A stretch of 64,000 nt of DNA from Candidatus Harrisonbacteria bacterium (GTDB lineage Bacteria; Patescibacteriota; Minisyncoccia; UBA6257; UBA11618), in NCBI GenBank assembly GCA_023244835.1, contig JAHFLN010000001.1, positions 4,912-68,911 of the forward strand, read 5' to 3'. The translations under genes and the position numbers were made by a program. Positions 1,290 to 62,278 of the stretch are shown piece after piece; the first letter of the stretch is position 1; each line of letters opens with the position of its first letter. The notes beneath the pieces are model-generated. The model was not told the DNA's origin. It searched no databases and was given only the letters and a program-made list of their open reading frames with translations.

Positions 1290-1411
1290 CTGGACTCCTC
1301 CTATTCGGTTGACAACGCGTTGGATACGGTCGTATTACGGCCCCTATAGCCCTTTTCCGTCAGGTCGCGTTCTGCGCATAGTATACGCTATACGCTCTAT
1401 TTTGTCAACCT

Positions 1412-1464
1412 CGTTAGAAGCCCGCTTTTTAGCGGCAGTCGCCTAAGGCGTCTTGCTTCTAACG
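1412..1464. repeat. Family-2 palindromic element, short copy: CGTTAGAAGC ... GCTTCTAACG, 33 bp spacer
   Basis: 10 bp perfect inverted repeat 13 nt downstream of map stop; same termini and internal CTAAGGCG as the copy at 24970-25086. Confidence 0.6.
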
Positions 1465-9194: not shown

Positions 9195-9563
9195 TTATAC
9201 GATCTCTTCCGCGAGGGAGAAGATGCCGTCGAAGCCCATTTCCTTGATTTCGCGCGGGATTGGCCCGAAGATGCGTGTCGCGCGCGGCTGCTTCTTGTCG
9301 TCGATCAAGACGACCGCGTTCTCATCGAAGCGCAGGCGCGTGCCATCGGGGCGGTTTATCGCGTGCGCCGTGCGCACGATGATGCATTTCACGATATCCT
9401 TCTTCTTTACCGCCTTCCGAGGCTCTGCGGTCTGGACGGACGCGATGACCGTCTCTCCGAGGTGTGCGTAGCGCTTGCGGCTCCCGCCGAGCAGCCTGAA
9501 GACACGGACGAATTTCGCGCCCGAGTTATCCGCAACTTTCAGTATCGAACGTTCCTGTACCAT
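9195..9563 (-). CDS. rplN: 50S ribosomal protein L14
   Basis: MVQERSILKVADNSGAK L14 N-terminus. Confidence 0.93.
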   Translation of the reverse strand: MVQERSILKVADNSGAKFVRVFRLLGGSRKRYAHLGETVIASVQTAEPRKAVKKKDIVKCIIVRTAHAINRPDGTRLRFDENAVVLIDDKKQPRATRIFGPIPREIKEMGFDGIFSLAEEIV

Positions 9564-9706
9564 ACCCTGTGTTACAAATTAAGCTTATTACTTATAAATC
9601 TATTGAAACTTGATTATACTCCCGATTTCTTTATTTGCCTAGTGTGTTTGCGATTCTTTAATCCCGCATTTTGCGGGATGGCTGAATTTGTAACACGGGG
9701 CATATG
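9561..9706. repeat. Family-1 palindromic intergenic element (terminal inverted repeats CCCTGTGTTACAAATT / AATTTGTAACACGGGG) between rpsQ and rplN
   Basis: ~18 bp inverted arms 105 bp apart; left arm overlaps the rplN start codon; inner hairpin CCCGCATTTTGCGGG. Confidence 0.7.
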
Positions 9707-16143: not shown

Positions 16144-17343
16144 CTATTTATTTATCTTCGTCACGACGCCCGCTCCTACGGTCTTGCCGCCTTCGCGGAT
16201 CGCGAAGCGCTGCTTTTCCTCGAGCGCGACCGCCATAATAAGCTTGACGTTGATCTTGATCGTGTCGCCCGGCATGACCATTTCTGTTCCTTCCGGCAGG
16301 ATCACCTCGCCTGTTACGTCCGTCGTTCTCATGTAGAACTGGGGTTTATATCCCTTGAAGAACGGGGTGTGACGGCCGCCTTCCTCCTTGCTCAATACGT
16401 AGACCTCGCACTCGAAGTCGGTGTGCGGCGAGACGGAGCCGGGCTTCGCGAGCACCTGGCCGCGCTCCACGTCCTCCTTCTTCAAGCCGCGGACCAAGAT
16501 GCCGACGTTGTCGCCCGCGCGACCCTCGTCCAAGAGCTTGTTGAACATTTCGATGCCGGTTACGACGGTCTTCTGGCTCGGGCGAAGACCGATGATTTCG
16601 ACTTCCTCGTTGACTTTCACGATACCGCGCTCGATACGGCCGGTTACGACCGTGCCGCGGCCTTCAATTGAGAAAATATCTTCGACGGGCATAAGGAAGG
16701 TCTTGTCGGTCTCGCGGACAGGCTCGGGGATGTACTCGTCGAGCGCTTTCACGAGATCAAGGATCGGCTGGACTGACGGGTCTTCGAGGCTCGAAGATTC
16801 AAGCGCCTTCAAGCCGGATCCGCGAATAACGGGGATCTGGTCTCCCGGGTATTCGTATTTCTTCAGCAATTCGCGGACTTCTGACTCAACGAGGTCGATG
16901 AGCTCCTTGTCGTCGACCATGTCGCACTTGTTCAAAAAGACGATGATCGAGGGAACGCCGATCTGGCGCGCAAGCAGAATGTGCTCGCGGGTCTGAGGCA
17001 TCGGGCCGTCGGTCGCTGAAACCACGAGGACCGCGCCGTCCATCTGGGCGGCTCCCGTGATCATGTTCTTGATGTAGTCTGCGTGACCCGGCGCGTCGAT
17101 GTGCGCGTAGTGCCGTTTCTCGGACTCGTATTCCGAGTGGTGGATAGAAATGGTGATTCCGCGGGCCTTTTCCTCCGGGCTCTTATCGAGCTCGTCGACG
17201 GTCAGCTCTTTGCCGGCCAAGCCCTTCATGTGGAGGACGTGGGTAATAGCGGCCGTGAGCGTGCTCTTGCCGTGGTCGACGTGACCGATCGTTCCGACGT
17301 TTACGTGCGGCTTAGACCGCTCGAATTTTGCCTTTTCTGCCAT
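16144..17343 (-). CDS. tuf: Elongation factor Tu
   Basis: [17 protein letters not shown] and NKCD GTPase motifs; 399 aa. Confidence 0.97.
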
Positions 17344-17438
17344 GTGTGCTGTTTTTTTACCTCTTATTTATATATGTTCTTTTTTCGACGAAAGTAACGA
17401 TAAGCATACCAATCGCCATGGGGACTGTCAATACGATA

Positions 17439-18443
17439 TTAGTACGCTTCCGGAACCCCGTTTTTAATGCGTTTCAGCACTAGATCTCGGACGCTCGTTC
17501 CGTTCCCGTCGAACATACCCGAGCCGTCGATTCCCTCCTTCGTGCAGGCATAGTCGCCCTTACACGCGCCTGCCTTGGCGATGAGGAGTTCCGCCGACTG
17601 TTTCGAAAGCTCGTATATCGCCCCCTTGCCGATTTTGGCCATATCTCCTGGAAATGAATACGCGACTCCTTCTACCAAAGGACGGAGCGCCGGCAATTCG
17701 ACGGCGTAGGAAGAGAATACGGGCTGCGTTATGCCTAAATCCTTCAGTTTTTTCAATCCTTGCGCGAAGAAGAAGGAAATATCGGTCGAGAAAATCGCAT
17801 CGTATTCCGCTCCTTTGAGCTTTAGGAGGCCCGAGGAAATATCTTTTTCCGTGCCCGTGAATATGACTTCTTTCGCGATATGGTCCTCTCCGTACGCTTC
17901 TTTAAAACTATCCGCGAGGGTCTTTGAGAATGCGTTTTGGTAGGAAATAACGGCAACTTTCTCATATTTCAAAGTATCGTGCATCTGTCTCGCTAAGAAC
18001 GCCGCTTCGCTTTCCAGGGCATATTGCATGTCATACATATTCTCCCCGCTTTCCGCATAGAGCTTTTGCGAAGCGGCCGAAGGGACGACGGCGAGGATTT
18101 CAGCTCCCTTCATGAGTGGCGCGACTGCTTCCTGCGGCGAACCGCATGCGGGACCTATAATAAGGTTCACTTTGTCGAAATCGACTAGCTTCTTATACAC
18201 CGTTACGGCTTCTTTCGGATCGCATTTGTCATCTTCGTATATGAATTCGGCATCAGTGCCGCCGAATGACGCTTCTACCCCCTCTTTCATTTCCGCGCCG
18301 TAATCGGCGGCGATGCCCGAGAGCGGCGCGATCACGCCGATTCTGACTTTAATCCCATCCGCTTTTTTCGATGTGCGAAGTAACGCCATGTAACCGCCTA
18401 TCGCAACGACGATGATCGCGAGCCATAACCAGATGCTTTTCAT
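17439..18443 (-). CDS. ABC transporter substrate-binding protein, LivJ/Peripla_BP_6-like, N-terminal TM anchor
   Basis: MKSIWLWLAIIVVAIGGYMAL anchor; paralogous to 18448, 20031, 21170, 30416 and 34224. Confidence 0.8.
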   Translation of the reverse strand: MKSIWLWLAIIVVAIGGYMALLRTSKKADGIKVRIGVIAPLSGIAADYGAEMKEGVEASFGGTDAEFIYEDDKCDPKEAVTVYKKLVDFDKVNLIIGPACGSPQEAVAPLMKGAEILAVVPSAASQKLYAESGENMYDMQYALESEAAFLARQMHDTLKYEKVAVISYQNAFSKTLADSFKEAYGEDHIAKEVIFTGTEKDISSGLLKLKGAEYDAIFSTDISFFFAQGLKKLKDLGITQPVFSSYAVELPALRPLVEGVAYSFPGDMAKIGKGAIYELSKQSAELLIAKAGACKGDYACTKEGIDGSGMFDGNGTSVRDLVLKRIKNGVPEAY

Positions 18444-18447
18444 GGCC

Positions 18448-19521
18448 TTATTTGATTTCTTTTACGACGAACACGCCGTCCCCCCAGGCGGCATAGCCGC
18501 TTCCGTCGAAATTAATCGTGCCCGTCAGCCCTGCATAGTCCTTGACGGCGCGGATGCTGTTCGCGATTTCGTCAGATGTCTTCGCGCCTGCTTTGATCGC
18601 CGCGCCTACTAAAGACATCGCGTCATATGCCGTCTGCGTGCTTGGCGCGACCTCATCAGTCGAGCCGTACGCCTCTTTGAATTTTGCGCTCATCGCATCC
18701 GACATTGTGAAATCAACCATATAGGTTCCTGTGAGGATCGGAATGGTCGTTTCGTTGATCGTTTGTCCGCCCGGGTAGACTATGAGTGCCTTAATGCCTT
18801 GTTCCTTGGCTTTTTTTATGAATGGGATCGCCTGCGGCTGGACGAGATTTACTACGATGCTATCTGGCTTTTGCGCTTTGATTTTTGCGATCACCGTCCT
18901 AAAATCCTTCTCGTCCGGATTCGCTATATGCACGTCGTCCACGATTACTACGCCGTAGCCGGATGCAAGCTTTTTGACGTTTTCCGTAACCTTGTCCATG
19001 AAGGCGTTTGCCGTGGTTATGACAATCGCCTTCTTCATATTCCGATCTTTCGCGAATTTCAATTCCTGCTTCGCCCATCCTTCGTATGAGACGCCGAGCG
19101 AGAATACGTAGGGCTGATAGGACATATCGCTCAGGCCCGAGGGCGAGATCATCGCCACTTTCGCCTCTTTAGCTATCGGCGCGACTGCCTCGAACCATTC
19201 TGTCCATTGCGGTCCTATGATCGCAACTACCTTATCTATGCTTATGAGCTTTTGCGCGGCTGACACGCATTTCGGGATGTCCGACGCGCAGTCTTCCGAG
19301 ATAAGCCTGATATTCAGTCCGTCCGCCCGTAGTTCCTTCACGCGCAATGCGACGGCTTTCTCTTCCCCTACGCCCCACGAGCTTCCGAAGCCCGTCACGT
19401 TTGTTAACTGACCGATAACGATTTCCCTTTCTTCGGATGGGGTAATTTTTTTATCCGATAACGTAAGCCATCCACCCACTATCACCACCAGGACCGCGAG
19501 CCACAGCAAGGGATTTTTCAT
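18448..19521 (-). CDS. ABC transporter substrate-binding protein, LivJ-like paralog
   Basis: MKNPLLWLAVLVVIVGGWLTL anchor; Peripla_BP_6 pattern. Confidence 0.8.
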   Translation of the reverse strand: MKNPLLWLAVLVVIVGGWLTLSDKKITPSEEREIVIGQLTNVTGFGSSWGVGEEKAVALRVKELRADGLNIRLISEDCASDIPKCVSAAQKLISIDKVVAIIGPQWTEWFEAVAPIAKEAKVAMISPSGLSDMSYQPYVFSLGVSYEGWAKQELKFAKDRNMKKAIVITTANAFMDKVTENVKKLASGYGVVIVDDVHIANPDEKDFRTVIAKIKAQKPDSIVVNLVQPQAIPFIKKAKEQGIKALIVYPGGQTINETTIPILTGTYMVDFTMSDAMSAKFKEAYGSTDEVAPSTQTAYDAMSLVGAAIKAGAKTSDEIANSIRAVKDYAGLTGTINFDGSGYAAWGDGVFVVKEIK

Positions 19522-19546
19522 ATCCCCATGCTAGCTTCGGCATGCA

Positions 19547-19578
19547 TAAAAAACAAGCGGGGCGAAGGGCCCCGCTTG
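19547..19578 (-). terminator. Rho-independent terminator after ORF 19613..19948
   Basis: CAAGCGGGGC-GAAG-GGCCCCGCTTG plus T-run on minus. Confidence 0.6.
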
Positions 19579-19612
19579 GTACGGAAATCCATGATTACCG
19601 ATCCTTGCATGG

Positions 19613-19948
19613 TCAGAGATGCAGGGCGAGCGCGACCAGATTATGCTCGCGGCACAGATGCGTATCGCCAATCGCCGGAGCGTTCTTGCATGTCCAGCAC
19701 ATCTCATCATCGGGGGCATCGGGAGCTGATGCGATCAGGCTTTCCGCCTCTCTCACGTCATCAGGGCTAAGGAAGGGAATCGAATAGGTATTCAAGAGCA
19801 TCAACTGCAGGAGCCGCGAAGCCGCCGCATATTGCGCCTCGAGCTGGTCCGCCCGATTGTCATCCCCGAGCCAGAACACTTCTCGATCGCCCGCTCTCCC
19901 GACAACCGTAGGAAAGCCGCTTGCGTTAGGACCTCGTTCACGACTCAT
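19613..19948 (-). CDS. Hypothetical 111 aa protein
   Basis: ORF followed by its own terminator; GC-consistent codon usage. Confidence 0.4.
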   Translation of the reverse strand: MSRERGPNASGFPTVVGRAGDREVFWLGDDNRADQLEAQYAAASRLLQLMLLNTYSIPFLSPDDVREAESLIASAPDAPDDEMCWTCKNAPAIGDTHLCREHNLVALALHL

Positions 19949-20030
19949 ATGTCACCTCGTTTCGGTTTCGATTGGAATACAAGGGATTTCTCCCACTGCC
20001 GGACACGATACCACGAAACCAATGCGTCGC

Positions 20031-21152
20031 CTAGATATCCGTGAGCGCTCCCGCCTTGATGCGACGGACCGAGAATTCCCTCGCCGTATCGCCGTTCACA
20101 TCGATCGTAATCATGCCCGTGATGCCTTGGTATCCTTTCGTCGCATACAATGCATCGCGTACGCACGCCGATTCCGTGCCGCCGCATTTTCCGATCGCGT
20201 CGGCTAATACGTTATAGCCGTCAAACGGCAGGGCCGCATAGATTTCCTGGCTTGGCTTCTTTCCGTATGCCTTCTCGTATGCCGCCATATATTCCACGAA
20301 TGCCGGGGCTGAGGCATCGTACGCGTATTGCGTGATGTAGAACCCCTCCGCATCCGGGTTTACTACAACCTCCTTGAAGCCGAAGTATTCGTTGCCGAGC
20401 ACGGGGATCTTCAAGCCGAAGTCCTTGCCCTGCTTGATGAACGCATTCGCCGTCACGGTTGAATTCATCACTGCGACTATGATTTGCGGCTTCAAGGCCG
20501 CGAGTTTCGCGAGCTCTGTCCGCACGTCGTACTCCTTCGAATTCACGCCTTCCGCGCCCAGGATGGCATTCCCCGCTCTCGCTCCGAAGTCCGCGACGAA
20601 CGCGTCTTTCATGCCCACGGTATAGTCCGCATTCTCGAAAAGGATAGCGACGCTCTTATAACCTGCCTTCGCGAGGAATGCCGACATCGCTTTCGCGGTC
20701 GCGACGGACGATGCGGACGTGCGGAACACGTAGTCGCCCGCATCGGTAATCTTCGGCGAGGTAGAAACCGGCGTGAAGAGAACGGCCTTCGCGGTTTCGG
20801 TGATCGGCGCCATGGAAAGCATCGAACCGCTGCAGACGCCGTTCACCACTATCGAAACCTTATCGACGGCGAGGAGCTTCTGCGCCGCAGAGGCCGCCTG
20901 CTTGGGATCGCATGCGTCGTCTTCATATACCATTTCTACCTTCTTGCCGGCGATTTCCGGCCGCTCTAAGGCGGCGAGCTTCCAGCCGCTCGCAACATCC
21001 TCGCCGGACGATCCCGCAACCGGGCCGGTGAAGGGGCCGACATAGCCGATCTTAATCGTATCTGCTCCTGCGCCGTCCTTATTTCTTTTAAACGCCATAT
21101 AACCCCCGACTGCGACGATGATTATTACGACTATTATCCAGATTTGTTTCAT
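20031..21152 (-). CDS. ABC transporter substrate-binding protein, LivJ-like paralog
   Basis: MKQIWIIVVIIIVAVGGYMAF anchor. Confidence 0.8.
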   Translation of the reverse strand: MKQIWIIVVIIIVAVGGYMAFKRNKDGAGADTIKIGYVGPFTGPVAGSSGEDVASGWKLAALERPEIAGKKVEMVYEDDACDPKQAASAAQKLLAVDKVSIVVNGVCSGSMLSMAPITETAKAVLFTPVSTSPKITDAGDYVFRTSASSVATAKAMSAFLAKAGYKSVAILFENADYTVGMKDAFVADFGARAGNAILGAEGVNSKEYDVRTELAKLAALKPQIIVAVMNSTVTANAFIKQGKDFGLKIPVLGNEYFGFKEVVVNPDAEGFYITQYAYDASAPAFVEYMAAYEKAYGKKPSQEIYAALPFDGYNVLADAIGKCGGTESACVRDALYATKGYQGITGMITIDVNGDTAREFSVRRIKAGALTDI

Positions 21153-21169
21153 ATGATTCTTTCTTCGGC

Positions 21170-22309
21170 TTAATCAACCGGCACCGGCGCGTCGTTCCTG
21201 ATTTGCTTCATCACGAAGCCTAAGTCCGAGTTCCCATTCGCGTCGAGGGAGAACGTGCCCATCAAGCCCGTCCACTTCTTTATGTTTTCGAGGAGCCAAT
21301 CCTTCACTTTCGCGCTGTCGTCACCCTCCGCTCGCAAACCCACGACCATCATCATGATCGCGTCATGCGTTGCCGCGGCATGGAAGGCGATGAGCGGATC
21401 CCTCTCGTATTTCGCCTTATATGCCGCGAGAAAATCCTTCCACGCGGCGCTTTCGCCGTCATATGCGGGATCGGCGAAGTATAAGCCCTCGAACGAGCCG
21501 ACGATTTTCTTCGCGTCGCCGTTCAAGGCAAGCGTGAAGTCTGAAAAAAGCGGCGCATCCAGCTTTTGTTCCTTGACTTGCTTCATGAAATTGCCCGCGG
21601 AGAGCCCCGTCTGCGAGGCGATCAATATCGCATCGGCACCCCGCGCTTTCAGTTTCGCTATGATAGTGCGGAAATCGTTCGTCCCGGGCTGGAACTGCTC
21701 GTCTATCGCTATTGCGCCGCCGCCCGCCATGATCGTTTCCTTGAAGCTCTTCGCAATATCTAACGTATATTCAGTCACTTCGGAAACCGAGGCTACTTTC
21801 TTATAGCCCATCTTTAGCATCGCATTCGCGATGTCCCGGCCCGCCAGTATGTCAGAATTCGCTGTGCGGAAAATGTATTCGCCTGCGGCATCCACATTGC
21901 TTCCACCTGTTACCGGCGTCATCACGATCGCCTTGTTCTCGTTCGCGACAGGAGCCGCGGCGATCGTGCCGTTGCTACACATACCACCCACGATGTAGCG
22001 GATGCCGTCTACCGAGACGAGCTTCGTTATGGCCGCAAGACCGGTCTTACTGTCGCATTTCGAGTCTTCGACCGTGAGCTCGAGCGGGTGGCCGTTCACG
22101 CCTCCTTTGGTATTTATCTCGTCGATCGTGAGGCGGGCCGCATTCACCATATTCTCGCCCGCGACGGCCAGGTCTCCGCTCAATATCGTCGCGATGCCGA
22201 TTTTTATCGGCGCCGCATTCGCATCGAGAGGCGTCGCCTTGTCTTTATTAACTATCAGATATCCTCCCGCCACTATAACGACCGCGGCCCATATCCAGAG
22301 ATTTTTCAT
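21170..22309 (-). CDS. ABC transporter substrate-binding protein, LivJ-like paralog
   Basis: MKNLWIWAAVVIVAGGYLIV anchor. Confidence 0.8.
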   Translation of the reverse strand: MKNLWIWAAVVIVAGGYLIVNKDKATPLDANAAPIKIGIATILSGDLAVAGENMVNAARLTIDEINTKGGVNGHPLELTVEDSKCDSKTGLAAITKLVSVDGIRYIVGGMCSNGTIAAAPVANENKAIVMTPVTGGSNVDAAGEYIFRTANSDILAGRDIANAMLKMGYKKVASVSEVTEYTLDIAKSFKETIMAGGGAIAIDEQFQPGTNDFRTIIAKLKARGADAILIASQTGLSAGNFMKQVKEQKLDAPLFSDFTLALNGDAKKIVGSFEGLYFADPAYDGESAAWKDFLAAYKAKYERDPLIAFHAAATHDAIMMMVVGLRAEGDDSAKVKDWLLENIKKWTGLMGTFSLDANGNSDLGFVMKQIRNDAPVPVD

Positions 22310-22384
22310 ATCGAAATACTACCTGTTAGAGCCTCATAAAATCAATCGATAAAAAATACTCCGTCATTCGACGAGGTATCTTCC

Positions 22385-24490
<2,106 letters not shown>

Positions 24491-24501: not shown

Positions 24502-24969
24502 TTACCAGCCGAAATGAGCGAACGCGCGGTTCGCTTCGGCCATGCGGTGCATGTCGAGCTTCTTCTTAACCGCCGTACCCTCGTTTTTCGACGCCGCGAT
24601 GAATTCCTCGGCCAGCTTTTCAGCCATTGACTTTCCCTTCTTCGCTCCCGCGGTCGCGATCAGCCAGCGGACGGCAAGCATGTACTGGCGTTCGGGGCGC
24701 ACCGGGCGCGGCACCTGGTAGTTCGCGCCTCCCACGCGACGGCTCGACACCTCGACTGCTGGGGAGATGTTCTCCAGCGCCTTCTCGAATACCTCGATCG
24801 GAGCCTGCTTGTGCTTCTTCTCGATCAGGTCAAACGCATCGTAGACGATCTTCTCGGCCACGGCCTTCTTGCCATCCTCCATTATATAGTTGATAAAGCG
24901 ACCGACGGCGATATTACCGTGCTTCAGGTCTCCTGCGTGATCGCGCTTATAATTACGTTTCTTTCTCAT
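24502..24969 (-). CDS. rpsG: 30S ribosomal protein S7
   Basis: 155 aa S7-like sequence; synteny rpsL-rpsG-fusA. Confidence 0.92.
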
Positions 24970-25086
24970 CCCGTTAGAAGCAGGTTATCGCAGATAACCG
25001 CATAGTAGCATTAGATATAGTATTGATTGACTCGATGATGATACTCATTTTTTTCTAATAAGGCAACTTAAGGCGCTTCTAACGGG
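24970..25086. repeat. Family-2 palindromic element, long copy: CCCGTTAGAAGC ... GCTTCTAACGGG, fills rpsL-rpsG spacer
   Basis: 12 bp perfect inverted arms 94 bp apart; inner hairpin GGTTATC-GCAG-GATAACC; embedded TTGCCT-17-TATCAT promoter-like for rpsG. Confidence 0.65.
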
Positions 25087-25087
25087 A

Positions 25088-25513
25088 TTATGCGGCCTCG
25101 GCCTTCTTAGGGGTTTTCGCGCCATATTTAGAGCGCTGCTGCTTCCTATCTTTCACGCCGCTCGTGTCGAGGACTCCGCGGAGGATATGGTAGCGCACGC
25201 CCGGAAGATCCTTAACCTTGCCGCCGCGGATTACGACTACCGAGTGCTCTTGGAGGTTGTGGCCTTCGCCCGGGATGTATGCCGTGACTTCGCTGCCGTT
25301 CGTAAGCCGTATACGGGCAACTTTCCGAAGCGCCGAGTTCGGCTTCTTGGGGGTCGTCGTGAAGACCTTCACGCATACGCCGCGCTTGAAGGGTGACGCC
25401 GAGTTCACCGGCTTGTTCAGGATATTATTGAAATACTTCAAAAGGGCCGGAGACTTTGATTTCGTCTTGAGCGGCTTCCTTCCTTTACGCACCAATTGTC
25501 GCATTGTCGGCAT
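25088..25513 (-). CDS. rpsL: 30S ribosomal protein S12 (with C-terminal Lys-rich extension)
   Basis: [13 protein letters not shown]...[11 protein letters not shown] motifs. Confidence 0.93.
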
Positions 25514-35547: not shown

Positions 35548-35635
35548 GGAGGGGTCGCATAGCGGCCTAGTGCACCATCTTGGAAAGGTGGCATACCGAA
35601 AGGTATCGAGGGTTCGAATCCCTCCCCCTCCGCCA
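35548..35635 (+). tRNA. tRNA-Ser (anticodon GGA), class II with long variable arm, CCA encoded
   Basis: Acceptor GGAGGGG/CCCCTCC; anticodon stem CCATC/GGTGG; loop TTGGAAA; T-loop GGTTCGAATCC; TTGAAC-17-TATACT promoter upstream. Confidence 0.85.
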
Positions 35636-35656
35636 GATTGGCAACTTTGAACCAAT

Positions 35657-36430
35657 ATGAATACATGGACTAAAAAGAGTATAGAACTGGCGCGTAAACC
35701 GGGATATTTAGATGCCTTGGGCGCTATTTATGTTATGAATATAAATCCTAGTAGACCACTAACGGAAGAAGTTGAGAAAAAAATACGAGAGGCTTTCCAT
35801 AATAGAAAAAATAAAGAGTTAGTTCATCTGTTAATTCAAAACGAAGTCTTTCCGGTCAAGGATTCTTATGTCGGATTTTTAAGACTTAACCCTGCGGCTA
35901 TTGATCAAAATCCGATAACTATCAATAGAATATCAGAAAGGCTTTACTCATTGGGGATTGAAGCACTTCTTAAGGAGGCAACTCGTCCTAAAGAGACAAA
36001 TCGTCAACTCGGACACTCATTCAAAAAATGGTTGCCTCAATTAGGTTATCCCGTACTTAATGTAGAAGAGTTTGCCAATACTCGAGGTGTGGCCATCCTT
36101 GCCGGTGGGGACGCACAACTTGCAAAATACGCTAGAGAGAAGTTGGGCTGTGAATTATCCAAAGGTATTGATTTTGTTTTAAAGAAAGGAAAGAATCATA
36201 TTATTGGTGAAGCTAAATTTCTTACAACTCCTGGAGGAGAGCAAGATCGAGGTTTTGATGACGCATCAAATTTTATTAAAGGAAAATTGCGCCCAAATGT
36301 GAAAAGAATAGCTGTTTTGGATGGCTATATCTGGGTAGAACGAACTGGTGGGCTCCACAATAAGATCGTGATGAACAACCTTGATATTTTTAGTGCTCTA
36401 CTCCTTCCCGAATATATTAAAAAGTTTTAG
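35657..36430 (+). CDS. Putative type II restriction endonuclease, PD-(D/E)xK-like
   Basis: AT-rich gene beginning 22 bp after the tRNA; candidate GIDFV...IIGEAKF catalytic motif; convergent with and overlapping the methyltransferase stop. Confidence 0.5.
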   Translation: MNTWTKKSIELARKPGYLDALGAIYVMNINPSRPLTEEVEKKIREAFHNRKNKELVHLLIQNEVFPVKDSYVGFLRLNPAAIDQNPITINRISERLYSLGIEALLKEATRPKETNRQLGHSFKKWLPQLGYPVLNVEEFANTRGVAILAGGDAQLAKYAREKLGCELSKGIDFVLKKGKNHIIGEAKFLTTPGGEQDRGFDDASNFIKGKLRPNVKRIAVLDGYIWVERTGGLHNKIVMNNLDIFSALLLPEYIKKF

Positions 36431-38187
36431 GTTGCAGAATAAACCTCAAAAGAAGCTTTTAATTTAGCTCCTTCTTTTTCTATAAGACTAATAGCATTTT
36501 TATTGAGGTCTATTCCTATCCAATTTCTTTTTAGTTCTTCAGCGGCTAGTAGAGTAGTACCCGACCCCGCAAAACAATCCAAAACCAAGTCGTCTTGCGT
36601 TGTAGAGCTCTGAATAATTTGTTTCAATAAGTCTCGATTTTTCTGTGTTGGGTAAAGAGAGCTCTCGAAACCAGGATCTTTAAAGTCCCACACGTCCTGA
36701 AGTTTCTTGCCTCGGTTTTCGTCTGCGTAGATTTTTTTTCGAGGATTCCCTGAACTAGACCACTCAATCAATCCTTCTTTATCTAGGCGTGTTAATTCTT
36801 CAGGGTTATATCTCCAATGCCTTCCTTTCGGTGGGAGCATGCCTTTCCATTCTCTGCCCGTAGGACCATTTCGTGTCTCTCCTTTAGCGTGAAGAGGTGT
36901 GGTGGCATACCTACGCCCTTTTTTGTCAATCTTGGGAAATTGTTTTATGATCTCCTCCTCAGTTAAGGCTATACGATGGTCCGTCCAAGACATTGGGTCA
37001 TGTCCATTTGGTTTTGATTTGGAATAAAAATATATTACATCTTTTATGTTCCCGAAAGCTTTCCTATCGAAATTTTTTGGATTACATTTTATTCTGGTAA
37101 TGTCATTTCTAAAATTTTCCTCTCCGAATACTTCGTCCATTAATACTTTTACATAATGTCCTATTTTCTGATCAATATGGAGGTATATGCTACCTGTTTC
37201 GGAAAGTAATTCTCTAAGAAGGATCAGTCTTTTTCTTAAAAACTCAAGGAAATCTGTGTTTGTAAGTTTGTCGCTATAAAAGTTTTCTTCGTTATAACCA
37301 ACAAAATCTTGCCCTGTACCAAAAGGTGGATCGATATAAATTAATTCGATATTGCCCTTTATATTTTTATTTTCATACAAATTCTTAAGAACACTGAGAT
37401 TGTCGCCTGCAATTAATTTATTTACAGACTTTGATCCATATTTCTTAGTAAGTTTAAGTTGAGCCGCTTTGATTTCAAGAACTTCTTCTTCCTTTATTTT
37501 TCCTCGATAAATCAACTCAGCTCCTCCTTTAGGACGACGTGCATGAGGAATCGTATGAAGAATATTTTCTGCTCTCTCCCTCTCGGAATATCTTTCGTTG
37601 GATTTAATAATATCTATAACTACACCTTGGATAGTTAACCGTTCAGGTTCAATAAAAAGAGGTAGCATTGTTTGGTTCGCAGGCTGTAGCCGTATCCTAT
37701 TTTTCTCCCTAAAAAACTTTTTAAGTGTGGCGGACTCCTGATCAATCAAAGCAACAACTTTTTGACCATTGTGTGCTACCGATTGACTCTGAATCAACAC
37801 AATGTCTCCATCGTTGATATTCTCATCAATCATACTATCGCCATACACACGTAGAGCGTAAACATCACTACTTTTAGGCATTTTCGATTTCGGGATAGCG
37901 ATTGTCTCCTTTTCTTGAATTGCTTCAATTGGCTCGCCTGCAGCAATAGTACCCAGGAGAGGAATGCTTACCAGGGGTTCGCCAGAGGAAATACTTATAG
38001 AACGTGCTTTATTTTCAGATTTATCCAAATATCCACTATCTCGTAGTTTGTTTATATGAAAATGTGCAGTAGAAACAGAGGCAAGTTTAAAATGCCTCTG
38101 TATTTCCTCTAAGGAGGGGGCATACCCTTTCTTTTTGGAAGACTCTTTTACGAAATCGAAGACCTCTTTTTGCTTTTTGGTGAGCAT
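36427..38187 (-). CDS. LexA-like repressor (HTH plus S24 peptidase) fused to beta-class amino-DNA methyltransferase (DPPF ... FAGSGTT)
   Basis: N-terminal ~205 aa align to LexA (IAAGEPI cleavage site, LRVYGDSM Ser, DGDIVLI, NGQKVVALID, TLKKF Lys); C-terminal motif IV IDPPF then motif I DCFAGSGTT. Confidence 0.8.
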   Translation of the reverse strand: MLTKKQKEVFDFVKESSKKKGYAPSLEEIQRHFKLASVSTAHFHINKLRDSGYLDKSENKARSISISSGEPLVSIPLLGTIAAGEPIEAIQEKETIAIPKSKMPKSSDVYALRVYGDSMIDENINDGDIVLIQSQSVAHNGQKVVALIDQESATLKKFFREKNRIRLQPANQTMLPLFIEPERLTIQGVVIDIIKSNERYSERERAENILHTIPHARRPKGGAELIYRGKIKEEEVLEIKAAQLKLTKKYGSKSVNKLIAGDNLSVLKNLYENKNIKGNIELIYIDPPFGTGQDFVGYNEENFYSDKLTNTDFLEFLRKRLILLRELLSETGSIYLHIDQKIGHYVKVLMDEVFGEENFRNDITRIKCNPKNFDRKAFGNIKDVIYFYSKSKPNGHDPMSWTDHRIALTEEEIIKQFPKIDKKGRRYATTPLHAKGETRNGPTGREWKGMLPPKGRHWRYNPEELTRLDKEGLIEWSSSGNPRKKIYADENRGKKLQDVWDFKDPGFESSLYPTQKNRDLLKQIIQSSTTQDDLVLDCFAGSGTTLLAAEELKRNWIGIDLNKNAISLIEKEGAKLKASFEVYSAT

Positions 38188-38242
38188 ATTGATATTATAG
38201 AAAATAAATAGAAAGTATACAAATCAAGTTATCCACAAGGTC

Positions 38243-39238
38243 ATGGCAAAGCATCACATCGTTCAAGACAAATATCTCACTCAATGGAGAAAAAGCGGAA
38301 CAGAAAATCAGCTCAATATTTATGTTATTCATGAAAATCAAATTATAGAAAGAGGACCGGGATGGAAGGGTTTTTGGAGAGATGATTTTAATGTGCTTGA
38401 AGATGACGGTGAAAAGTCCTACCTCCCAGAGGAAGTTACGGTAATTATTGATACAAAGGGTATTGAAGCTGTCAGGAAAATAAATACTACAAGCGAAGAA
38501 TTATTATCAGGTATGGATAGGAGTTGCGTAGCTTTTTATACGGCATTGCAGTACACAAGAACTCCGCGACACAGAGAGGAAACAAACAAATTGATCGAAG
38601 CTACTACCCGACATTTTATGAGAAAAGACCTTCCATCACCAGATAAGGTGCATATGTCCAAAGATAAGATACTCGAGTATAACCCACAGAATAAAATGGA
38701 GGAGGATGCTCTGGATGTGATAAGTAAGATGACGCAAGAGGAAATCAACTCACAGATTTTTAAGGCAATACACGATGATACAGTCAGGATCGGCCTTACA
38801 AAGACAGGCCACTCAAAAGGCATTCTGAAAGTAGATCGTCATGCCGAGAAGATATTTGAAATGCAGTGGCTATTCCTAGTAACTCCTGAGGGTACGTCCT
38901 TCATTACCTCGGATAGCCCTTGTTTTACAATATCCACATCGAAACTGAATGGGCTAATATCGCCTCACTCAACGGTATATTTCCCATTAAGACCAGATAT
39001 ATGTCTTTACATAAAACCGAGCATGAAATCAAAAGCAGAATACTATATGAAGTTAGATAAGGGACAGGTTAGGGATATAAATTCACTGATACTCTCAAAC
39101 AGTACCCAATGTGCAGTTGCCAAGGACAAAATACATTTAGAGAAACTGACCAAGAACTTCGATTACAAAAACCACAGAAAGTCACGCGTTATATCTATTA
39201 GCGAATCGGGGCCATACACAATGTTTACCGCAGAATAG
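38243..39238 (+). CDS. DUF4238-like protein
   Basis: N-terminal KHHIVQDKYLTQW matching the DUF4238 HhxPQxYL motif; AT-rich; adjacent to R-M pair. Confidence 0.5.
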   Translation: MAKHHIVQDKYLTQWRKSGTENQLNIYVIHENQIIERGPGWKGFWRDDFNVLEDDGEKSYLPEEVTVIIDTKGIEAVRKINTTSEELLSGMDRSCVAFYTALQYTRTPRHREETNKLIEATTRHFMRKDLPSPDKVHMSKDKILEYNPQNKMEEDALDVISKMTQEEINSQIFKAIHDDTVRIGLTKTGHSKGILKVDRHAEKIFEMQWLFLVTPEGTSFITSDSPCFTISTSKLNGLISPHSTVYFPLRPDICLYIKPSMKSKAEYYMKLDKGQVRDINSLILSNSTQCAVAKDKIHLEKLTKNFDYKNHRKSRVISISESGPYTMFTAE

Positions 39239-54327: not shown

Positions 54328-54335
54328 ATGAGCAG

Positions 54336-54430
54336 TATACCCCGTGTTACAAATCCGACCATATATGACCCGTCATATTAGCTCGTCCATAGCGTTTCTA
54401 CACCACGTCGGATTTGTAACACGGGGTATA
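54336..54430. repeat. Family-1 palindromic element: perfect 24 bp inverted repeat TATACCCCGTGTTACAAATCCGAC / GTCGGATTTGTAACACGGGGTATA
   Basis: Arms 54336-54359 and 54407-54430; 47 bp spacer; begins 9 nt from cdaA start codon. Confidence 0.8.
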
Positions 54431-54440
54431 CCTCGTCGTG

Positions 54441-62141: not shown

Positions 62142-62278
62142 CATGCCCCGTGTTATAAATCCGATCTTTCCCGCGGGGAAAATAAAAAACCACGAAATCC
62201 ATATATGATAATCAGAACGATGCATATCAATGACCCCTATCAACCCGATAATCAATCGGATTTGTAACACGGGGCATG
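62142..62278. repeat. Family-1 palindromic element: CATGCCCCGTGTTATAAATCCGAT / ATCGGATTTGTAACACGGGGCATG (23/24 match)
   Basis: Arms 62142-62165 and 62255-62278, 89 bp spacer; right-arm terminal ATG is the dcd start codon. Confidence 0.8.

Follow-up and report, generated by a model that had tools for sequence, protein, structure and literature searches.

Evidence for a mobile element lacking an open reading frame in the rpsL-rpsG spacer of a Patescibacteria genome, and a candidate GIY-YIG nuclease of its family

The window analysed here is the whole stretch of 64,000 nucleotides, and its str operon genes are read on the minus strand in the order rpsL, rpsG, fusA. The rpsL gene (25088–25513, minus strand) encodes ribosomal protein S12 (PF00164), and the rpsG gene (24502–24969, minus strand) encodes ribosomal protein S7 (PF00177). 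The spacer between them is 118 nt long (24970–25087), and a perfect 14-nt inverted repeat brackets the whole spacer. The arm next to rpsG is located at 24968–24981 (plus-strand sequence ATCCCGTTAGAAGC), and the arm next to rpsL is located at 25075–25088 (plus-strand sequence GCTTCTAACGGGAT); the sequence between the arms is 93 nt long. The base complementary to the A of the rpsG ATG is at position 24969, and the rpsL stop codon ends at position 25088. As mRNA, the spacer reads UA[AU CCCGUUAGAAGC ... GCUUCUAACGGG AU]G, and the outermost pairs connect the end of the rpsL stop codon, its last base, with the first two bases of the rpsG start. An earlier note, made from the letters of the window, had described a palindromic element of a repeat family that fills the whole rpsL-rpsG spacer, and this description holds. 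The 12-mers that it named are present at 24970–24981 (CCCGTTAGAAGC) and 25075–25086 (GCTTCTAACGGG), but the gap between them is 93 nt and not 94 nt, and the perfect repeat is 14 nt and not 12 nt long. One nucleotide (25087) indeed lies between the 12-mer and the rpsL stop codon (25088–25090). The corresponding one-nucleotide gap on the rpsG side does not exist, and the start codon (CAT on the plus strand, 24967–24969) directly adjoins the element.

According to a boundary model derived from 122 copies of the family (see below), with a terminal repeat of 13 nt, the element spans 24969–25087 on the minus strand (119 nt, no open reading frame). It is referred to as copy A of family 2. On the minus strand, copy A reads T CCCGTTAGAAGC ... 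GCTTCTAACGGG A. The terminal A and the following TG form the rpsG ATG, and the rpsL stop TAA lies at the base of the element stem. Copy A has minus-strand polarity and is co-oriented with rpsL and rpsG. On the 5′ side of its right arm it has the polarity marker CCT, which 53 of the 69 start-codon copies discussed below share. A local hairpin, GGTTATC-GCA-GATAACC (24983–24999, minus strand), is located directly 5′ of the 3′ arm in the element polarity; in the mRNA it is GGUUAUC-UGC-GAUAACC. This inner hairpin had been recognised before with the loop GCAG, in which one G was counted twice; the loop GCA has 3 nt. A local hairpin before the 3′ arm is a subfamily feature, which copy A shares with the copies at loci L016, L099, L110, L107, L120 and L027. 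Copy A folds better than shuffled sequences (z −3.1 as RNA, z −4.0 as DNA). The same spacer sequence is found in five other, independent assemblies of this strain, and thus copy A is not an assembly artefact.

The S7 homologues put the organism in the Parcubacteria/Patescibacteria. In relatives with 95% identical S7, the junction is GCA TAA CGAT ATG AGA AAG or TAA CGCA ATG, with a spacer of 4 nt. In relatives with 83% and 80% identical S7, the spacer is 4–11 nt long. Therefore, about 114 nt were gained in the lineage of the window. The earlier note had set conservation of the spacer as a test, and the spacer of 4 nt in close relatives answers it: copy A is a lineage-specific, recent insertion and not a conserved leader. 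Copy A has no recognisable target duplication (GCATAA|TCC...GGA|TGAGAAAG), and the left duplicate that would be expected is absent, together with 5 nt of the ancestral spacer. Thus, either the left junction was remodelled or trimmed, or the ancestral junction was TAATG.

The location raises the question of a functional cis-regulatory RNA of the str operon, namely an S7 autoregulatory site, an RNase III stem or an internal rpsG-fusA promoter. In E. coli, the S7-binding rpsL-rpsG intercistronic region is about 96 nt, and the S7 translational operator of E. coli resembles the window element in its genomic position and as a structured spacer of similar length. The stable stem of copy A includes the rpsG start codon, and a weak promoter-like match is present. 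This match, the TTGCCT-17-TATCAT of the earlier note, is indeed found on the minus strand at 25066–25038, but it fits at only 9 of 12 positions, and matches of this quality are not enriched in the real sequence over shuffles (3 versus 1.4 ± 1.2). Unlike a regulatory site of the operon, the element is absent from all relatives examined, close ones included, and it shares its termini and sequence with elements before unrelated genes in many phyla. No Rfam match was found for the whole window at the gathering threshold or for the spacer at E up to 10, where only noise appeared (SNORD108, mir-2232, MEG8). A cis-regulatory RNA as the origin of the element is refuted by these results, and this explanation as a whole is very improbable; there is still room for a secondary co-option of the inserted element. 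Three further candidates, attC, tRNA-anticodon mimicry and anti-Shine-Dalgarno pairing, were rejected, as the arrangement does not fit them.

A shorter copy with the same termini had been reported after the map gene, and it was found there with exact 10-nt arms. This copy B spans 1409–1467 on the plus strand (59 nt, without an open reading frame) and is a short form with a three-way junction. The core, 1412–1464, is 53 nt long; the exact arms are located at 1412–1421 and 1455–1464, 33 nt apart, and two hairpins are located at 1422–1435 and 1440–1450. The outer triplets are decayed (CCT...CGG). Copy B has plus-strand polarity, antisense to map, and its 53-nt core lies 12 nt after the map stop codon. 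The three-way-junction fold has a z of −5.1 against shuffles, and the same architecture is found in the copies at L038, L097, L114 and L059. The CTAAGGCG block said to be shared by the two window copies is reduced to the 7-mer TAAGGCG, the only stretch of it common to both. As the positions of this 7-mer are non-equivalent once the element polarity is considered, the sharing is probably due to chance.

Copy B is absent from the relatives L169 and L171, the map genes of which are 89% and 77% identical. These two relatives lack a block of 80 nt, which corresponds to copy B plus an imperfect duplication of about 20 nt of the map end and −35 region. The flanking duplication of copy B is TTG only. 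Within 1395–1497, map ends to the left of copy B as CTT ACG AAA TAA GA, and TTGACAAAATAGAG is found to the right. The relatives have a single ATA TTG ACA AAA TAA GA at the map end, and the −35 box of the next promoter is inside the coding end of map. A promoter-like site, TTGACA-17-TATACT (1380–1408, minus strand, 11 of 12 positions), directly abuts copy B, and the TTGA of this site is presumably the target site of copy B. Both window copies match the pattern CGTTAGAAGC-N33..93-GCTTCTAACG, for which 0.00 matches are expected according to 100 shuffles of the window. With regard to the features by which MITEs are recognised, the window copies have inverted repeats, are 119 and 59 nt long without an open reading frame, occur as multiple copies, and have empty sites in relatives.

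The same pattern was scanned against other genomes, with one genome per species. Family-2 arms were found at at least 119 loci in these genomes, in addition to the two copies in the window, and the recurrence of the termini that the earlier note had set as a test was thereby observed. Most of the loci are in Patescibacteria of many classes (Saccharibacteria-labelled, Paceibacteria, Nomura-, Kaiser-, Jorgensen-, Moran-, Levy-, Doudna-, Lipton-, Terry- and Zambryskibacteria), and about 20 of the listed loci are in MAGs labelled Planctomycetota, Omnitrophota, Elusimicrobiota and others. Two hits of the scan, L022 and L076, are tandem repeats and were discarded as false positives. When arm positions 10–12 are relaxed, a superfamily with the core CCCGTTAGA...TCTAACGGG is obtained. 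Two or more elements, of varying terminal-repeat subtype, are present in 31 of the 119 loci of 8 kb. Copies without an open reading frame at different genes within one genome are 88–95% identical, against a between-genome median of 63%. At locus L082 (867–1005 and 1281–1348), a variant element (CCCCGTTAGAAAT...ATTTCTAACGGGG) is nested in a short-form family-2 copy with CCTG duplicated, and an intact paralogue of the copy nested into is located 300 nt away.

When every boundary and repeat length was tried, the 122 copies were best described by a 13-nt terminal repeat (Y-CC-CGTTAGAAGC) flanked by a 4-bp direct repeat. The direct repeat is exact in 68 of them, whereas about 0.5 would be expected by chance. 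The duplicated target is TNNA preceded by a purine. Of these 68 copies, 62 have T as the first duplicated base and 60 have A as the fourth; TGAA is the commonest (28 times), followed by TTGA, TCAA, TAAA and others. The duplication is sometimes 5 bp long.

The copies are associated with start codons. Of the 122 public copies that have full flanks, 68 are followed by an open reading frame of 60 codons or more that begins exactly 2 nt beyond the right arm (...CUAACGG-R-UG); with the two window copies included, the count is 69 of 124. The last base of the element (A or G) and the TG of the duplication form the host ATG or GTG. The polarity of an element can be read from CGC... after the 5′ arm and from a bulge of 3–4 nt, (A/U)CCU or UCU, before the 3′ arm. 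Among the start-codon copies of readable polarity, 52 of 53 are co-oriented with the downstream gene. Ten downstream genes were sampled, and they encode RuvC, AdoHcyase, a class II aminoacyl-tRNA synthetase, YqeY, trigger factor, an S24 peptidase (LexA-like), SSB, Pol III delta, a group 1 glycosyltransferase and AlaRS. The Pfam match begins at residues 2–5 for seven of these genes (RuvC, AdoHcyase, YqeY, trigger factor, SSB, AlaRS and the near-complete Glyco_transf_1), and thus their starts are true starts. The left copy of the duplication usually keeps a second ATG (ATGAA-TCC...), which opens only short uORFs. In-frame read-through of the copies without an open reading frame, of the RPE-like or bypass-like kind, was considered and rejected, as the uORFs are short and their ends varied. 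The exceptions are L092, the only copy in which the upstream frame crosses the element and continues in phase into the host gene, and L052, in which the uORF spans the element and ends on an ATGA overlap. Short forms are more often found at GTTGAC(A), a −35-like box.

Two length classes were observed. The short forms are 55–76 nt long and highly structured, and the long forms are about 90–113 nt long, the upper end being bounded by the search pattern. The start-codon copies cluster at 105–113 nt and have their own conserved subterminal stem. The short forms at L015, L048, L050, L051, L119, L120 (6943–7008), L038, L097, L114 and L059, together with window positions 1412–1464, have conserved multi-helix interiors across distant phyla. 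Two interior types are seen, CGCCC-hairpin-GCUACGG...GGGGCG-ACCU and CC-hairpin-GG-CAG-hairpin-CUU, with UACG or UUCG loops; the hairpins keep pairing while the sequence changes, and the folds have z values of −4 to −8. A search of Rfam with a short-form copy gave no match. The short-form interior may be a structured RNA or a single-stranded-DNA motif in its own right. Many long forms (L036-type) have a subterminal stem built on GCGATCGC, the cyanobacterial HIP1 palindrome octamer, and their recurrent interior motifs, seen by eye, are GGGA-TAAAAT-like (−10-like) and (A/T)GCAGAT. The subterminal stem P2 of the copies without an open reading frame covaries: pair 19–45 is AU in 20 and GC in 15 copies, and none of 500 shuffles reaches the observed measures. 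The stems are kept by compensatory changes.

Longer elements with identical arms, of about 275 nt, also exist, and they encode a GIY-YIG nuclease and not a known transposase. The 273-nt elements at L077 and L099, with the termini CCCGTTAGAGAC...GTCTCTAACGGG, have one open reading frame each, and both products belong to PF01541 (GIY-YIG, E about 1e-16). These two elements were found as variant-terminus pairs in a relaxed end-pair search, the results of which were mostly noise, and a stricter scan with the core termini confirmed them. The sole open reading frame of such full-length elements encodes about 86–95 amino acids of the UPF0213/YhbQ type. Its first and last codons are the terminal inverted repeats ("MNPVRD...FLSLTG"): ATG-AAT and the left repeat give the N-terminus (M-N-P-V-R-x), and the right repeat gives the C-terminus (...L-x-L-T-G-stop). 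A protein search gave 2296 homologues, and among the best 120 of these, 101 begin with M-x-P-V-(R/K/S) and end with x-L-(T/A/M/P)-G, mostly as MNPVR...LTG. The nuclease frame uses the duplicated host ATG, and its stop codon, TGA, overlaps the ATG of the gene that follows (GGATGA). At L166 and L173, the nuclease gene lies in an operon, and it overlaps both neighbours by ATGA or starts 4 nt after the upstream stop. In a scan of metagenomes, the exact arms of the window, CGTTAGAAGC...GCTTCTAACG, were found 235–265 nt apart at 32 loci. About 21 of these loci have the nuclease frame between the arms, again with TGAA or TATG duplications at gene starts, and at 14 of those 21 a co-oriented gene start follows.

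The nearest solved structure is that of the UPF0213 protein BH0048 (E 7e-10), and a faint match to SLX1 was also obtained. Residue 6 and residue −4 of the nuclease covary as base pairing between the repeats predicts (D/S 84, A/A 11, G/P 2 and 4 mismatches). This covariation of the terminal repeats could alternatively come from co-evolving protein-binding sites and not from a hairpin. The AlphaFold model has a pLDDT of 86.8 with a confident core, and values of 61 and 53 for the repeat-encoded tails. The low confidence predicted for the tails is consistent with repeat codons that are constrained at the nucleic-acid level. An HMM of 120 family proteins found no nuclease gene in the six-frame translation of the 64-kb window, and no remnant of the nuclease frame was found in the interiors of the copies without an open reading frame. 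Identical nuclease proteins were also checked for copies at several loci, and the proteins P0146 and P0141 each occur at a single locus, which was seen in many samples.

The form of the ends also fits an ordinary MITE moved by a conventional DDE transposase (IS1380/piggyBac-like), with the GIY-YIG gene as cargo or an independent passenger. The ends begin with CCC or TCC, and the target duplications are 4–5 bp long. IS1380 elements (ISfinder) and piggyBac have CC(C) ends and 4–5-bp duplications of the T..A type, and piggyBac has the terminal repeat CCCTAGAAAG and a TTAA duplication. GIY-YIG chemistry alone, moreover, does not account for integration. To find such a source, solo ends and end pairs 250–5000 nt apart were searched, and neither a long terminus pair nor a unit of the size of a transposase turned up in the window or in the roughly 1.1 Mb of fetched loci. 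In contrast to IS1380 and piggyBac, no DDE transposase was found for family 2, and the unit is about 275 nt instead of 1.5–2.5 kb. The identity of the first and last nuclease codons with the repeats, in 101 of the best 120 of the 2296 homologues, is not the pattern of a passenger gene, and the need of the nuclease frame for a host ATG accounts for the strict co-orientation of elements and host genes. A conventional DDE origin is thus unlikely.

Copy A might, on the other hand, be a relic of decay or deletion in situ, left by a full-length nuclease-bearing insertion at rpsL-rpsG and not by MITE transposition. It shares its orientation and the CCT marker 5′ of the right arm with the nuclease-bearing elements of the ...SLLLTG class, and its interior has no close relative among the other sampled copies (best 68%, which is background). 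Against this idea, near-identical copies without an open reading frame are found at different genes in one genome (L041a, L041b and L047), and therefore such forms do move. In addition, a GIY-YIG remnant is not detectable in the window, and the start-codon copies form their tight cluster of 105–113 nt with a subterminal stem of their own. We regard decay in situ as quite unlikely.

The reading that we prefer, with a probability of roughly 0.7, is that copy A is a MITE-like member, without an open reading frame, of a mobile superfamily with CCCGTTAGA...TCTAACGGG termini, the full-length forms of which have a GIY-YIG gene and which inserts at start codons. The family as such is defined by what was observed in many copies: terminal repeats, target duplications, association with start codons, a fixed orientation, and a nuclease frame embedded in the repeats. 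On the preferred reading of copy A as a mobile MITE-like element, the steps would be as follows. The element would insert with a 4-bp (sometimes 5-bp) TNNA duplication, very often at a start codon, A|TGAA. The left duplication would keep the host ribosome-binding site and ATG, from which the nuclease frame or a short relic uORF would be read. The terminal A or G of the element and the right duplication would rebuild the host ATG or GTG, typically overlapping the nuclease stop, and ribosomes would be handed back to the host gene through the ATGA overlap. A nuclease-less copy would have landed at the rpsL stop/rpsG start junction in the lineage of the window. The GIY-YIG protein may cut the element ends and RTNNAY targets and so drive mobility, and copies without an open reading frame may be moved in trans by the protein of a full-length copy elsewhere. 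GIY-YIG enzymes hydrolyse DNA, and we know of none that performs strand transfer. A circular or sticky-end intermediate with one TGAA would, speculatively, also explain the orientation bias.

At the mRNA level, the terminal stem of copy A, 14 bp long, is predicted to set UAA beside AUG. A ribosome terminating on rpsL may melt the 5′ arm and thereby free the rpsG AUG. The insertion of 118 nt may be tolerated because the stem preserves the translational coupling of S12 to S7.

For the broader proposal, we consider the odds to be about even. It states that these elements are an undescribed class of prokaryotic transposable element, the only protein of which is a GIY-YIG (UPF0213) nuclease of about 86–95 amino acids and not a DDE, HUH, serine or tyrosine transposase. 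The terminal codons of the nuclease would be the repeats of a unit of about 275 nt, which would target start codons, borrow the host ribosome-binding site and ATG, and hand translation back by ATGA, and hairpin derivatives without an open reading frame would pepper CPR operons, including ribosomal-protein operons. No description of such elements was found in a literature search that covered part of the journals, and a prior description is possible.

Among known systems, the Correia elements of Neisseria (CREE/NEMIS) are the closest to the window element in behaviour. They are about 100–150 nt long, have no open reading frame, terminal inverted repeats and short target duplications, and they are numerous, intergenic next to genes, and co-transcribed, and they form long hairpins in the mRNA. 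Their 26-bp ends and TA duplication are unrelated, however, and they are confined to Neisseria, whereas the elements described here have CCCGTTAGAAGC termini, TNNA duplications and mostly Patescibacteria as hosts. The partner of family 2 is a GIY-YIG mini-gene and not a recognised transposase, and, unlike Correia elements, family 2 inserts at start codons in one orientation with the start rebuilt from the last base of the element. The free-standing GIY-YIG genes of phage T4 (seg) and the GIY-YIG frames of fungal mitochondria are likewise small selfish nuclease genes between conserved operon genes, with the nuclease as the sole product. These homing genes have one cognate target, move by recombination-dependent gene conversion, and have no terminal repeats or duplications; family 2 has inverted repeats, 4-bp duplications, many unrelated target genes and derivatives without an open reading frame. 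The family-2 protein is of the UPF0213/YhbQ type, without the DNA-binding extension of I-TevI. REPIN/RAYT systems and the Rickettsia palindromic elements are similar as short hairpin repeats that proliferate in compact genomes and are tolerated in transcription units. REPINs have no target duplications, a GTAG motif and an HUH tyrosine transposase, whereas family 2 has duplications, no GTAG was seen, and its gene is of the GIY-YIG type. The Rickettsia palindromic elements differ in that they insert in frame inside open reading frames.

Several other features of the window were observed. A second inverted-repeat family, family 1, has the terminal repeat CCCCGTGTTACAAATCCGA and 4-bp duplications (TATA, CATG and CATA), and its copies are located at 9562–9703, 54335–54431 and 62142–62278. 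The first of these takes up the rpsQ-rplN spacer completely and adjoins the rplN ATG (9563), and the third adjoins the ATG (62276) of a dcd-like gene. Families 1 and 2 together account for five such elements in 64 kb. Searches of viral contigs and of the other fetched loci gave no match to the family-1 termini. The str operon itself is interrupted over 16144–24490, where fusA (22385–24490) and tuf (16144–17343) are separated by four genes for periplasmic-binding proteins (Peripla_BP_6/ANF_receptor) and one small open reading frame without a Pfam match. This interruption is common to the closer relatives; in the 83% and 80% relatives, tuf directly follows fusA. A low-GC island at 35548–39238 (38–42% against about 56%) adjoins a tRNA-Ser gene and encodes a Tsp45I-like restriction enzyme, a DUF4238 protein, and a 586-aa fusion of LexA DNA-binding, S24 peptidase and N6/N4 DNA methylase parts. 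In the close relative L169, a 405-aa gene with a faint match to sigma-70 region 4 (640–1857) is present between secY and adk in the ribosomal-protein cluster.

If the proposal is true, mobility would be the function of part of UPF0213/YhbQ GIY-YIG, a large and enigmatic family; we know of no insertion-sequence family that uses a nuclease of this type. A selfish element would then inhabit essential, coupled operons of streamlined genomes without breaking them, with the start codon duplicated and the element folded away. Thousands of genes annotated as "GIY-YIG nuclease family protein", together with many odd 60–120-nt spacers in CPR, would belong to one mobile family. Gene starts beside the elements would be predictable, and the presence or absence of copies would serve as strain-level markers. 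The nuclease would be a compact enzyme with defined DNA ends, and as such it is directly testable in vitro.
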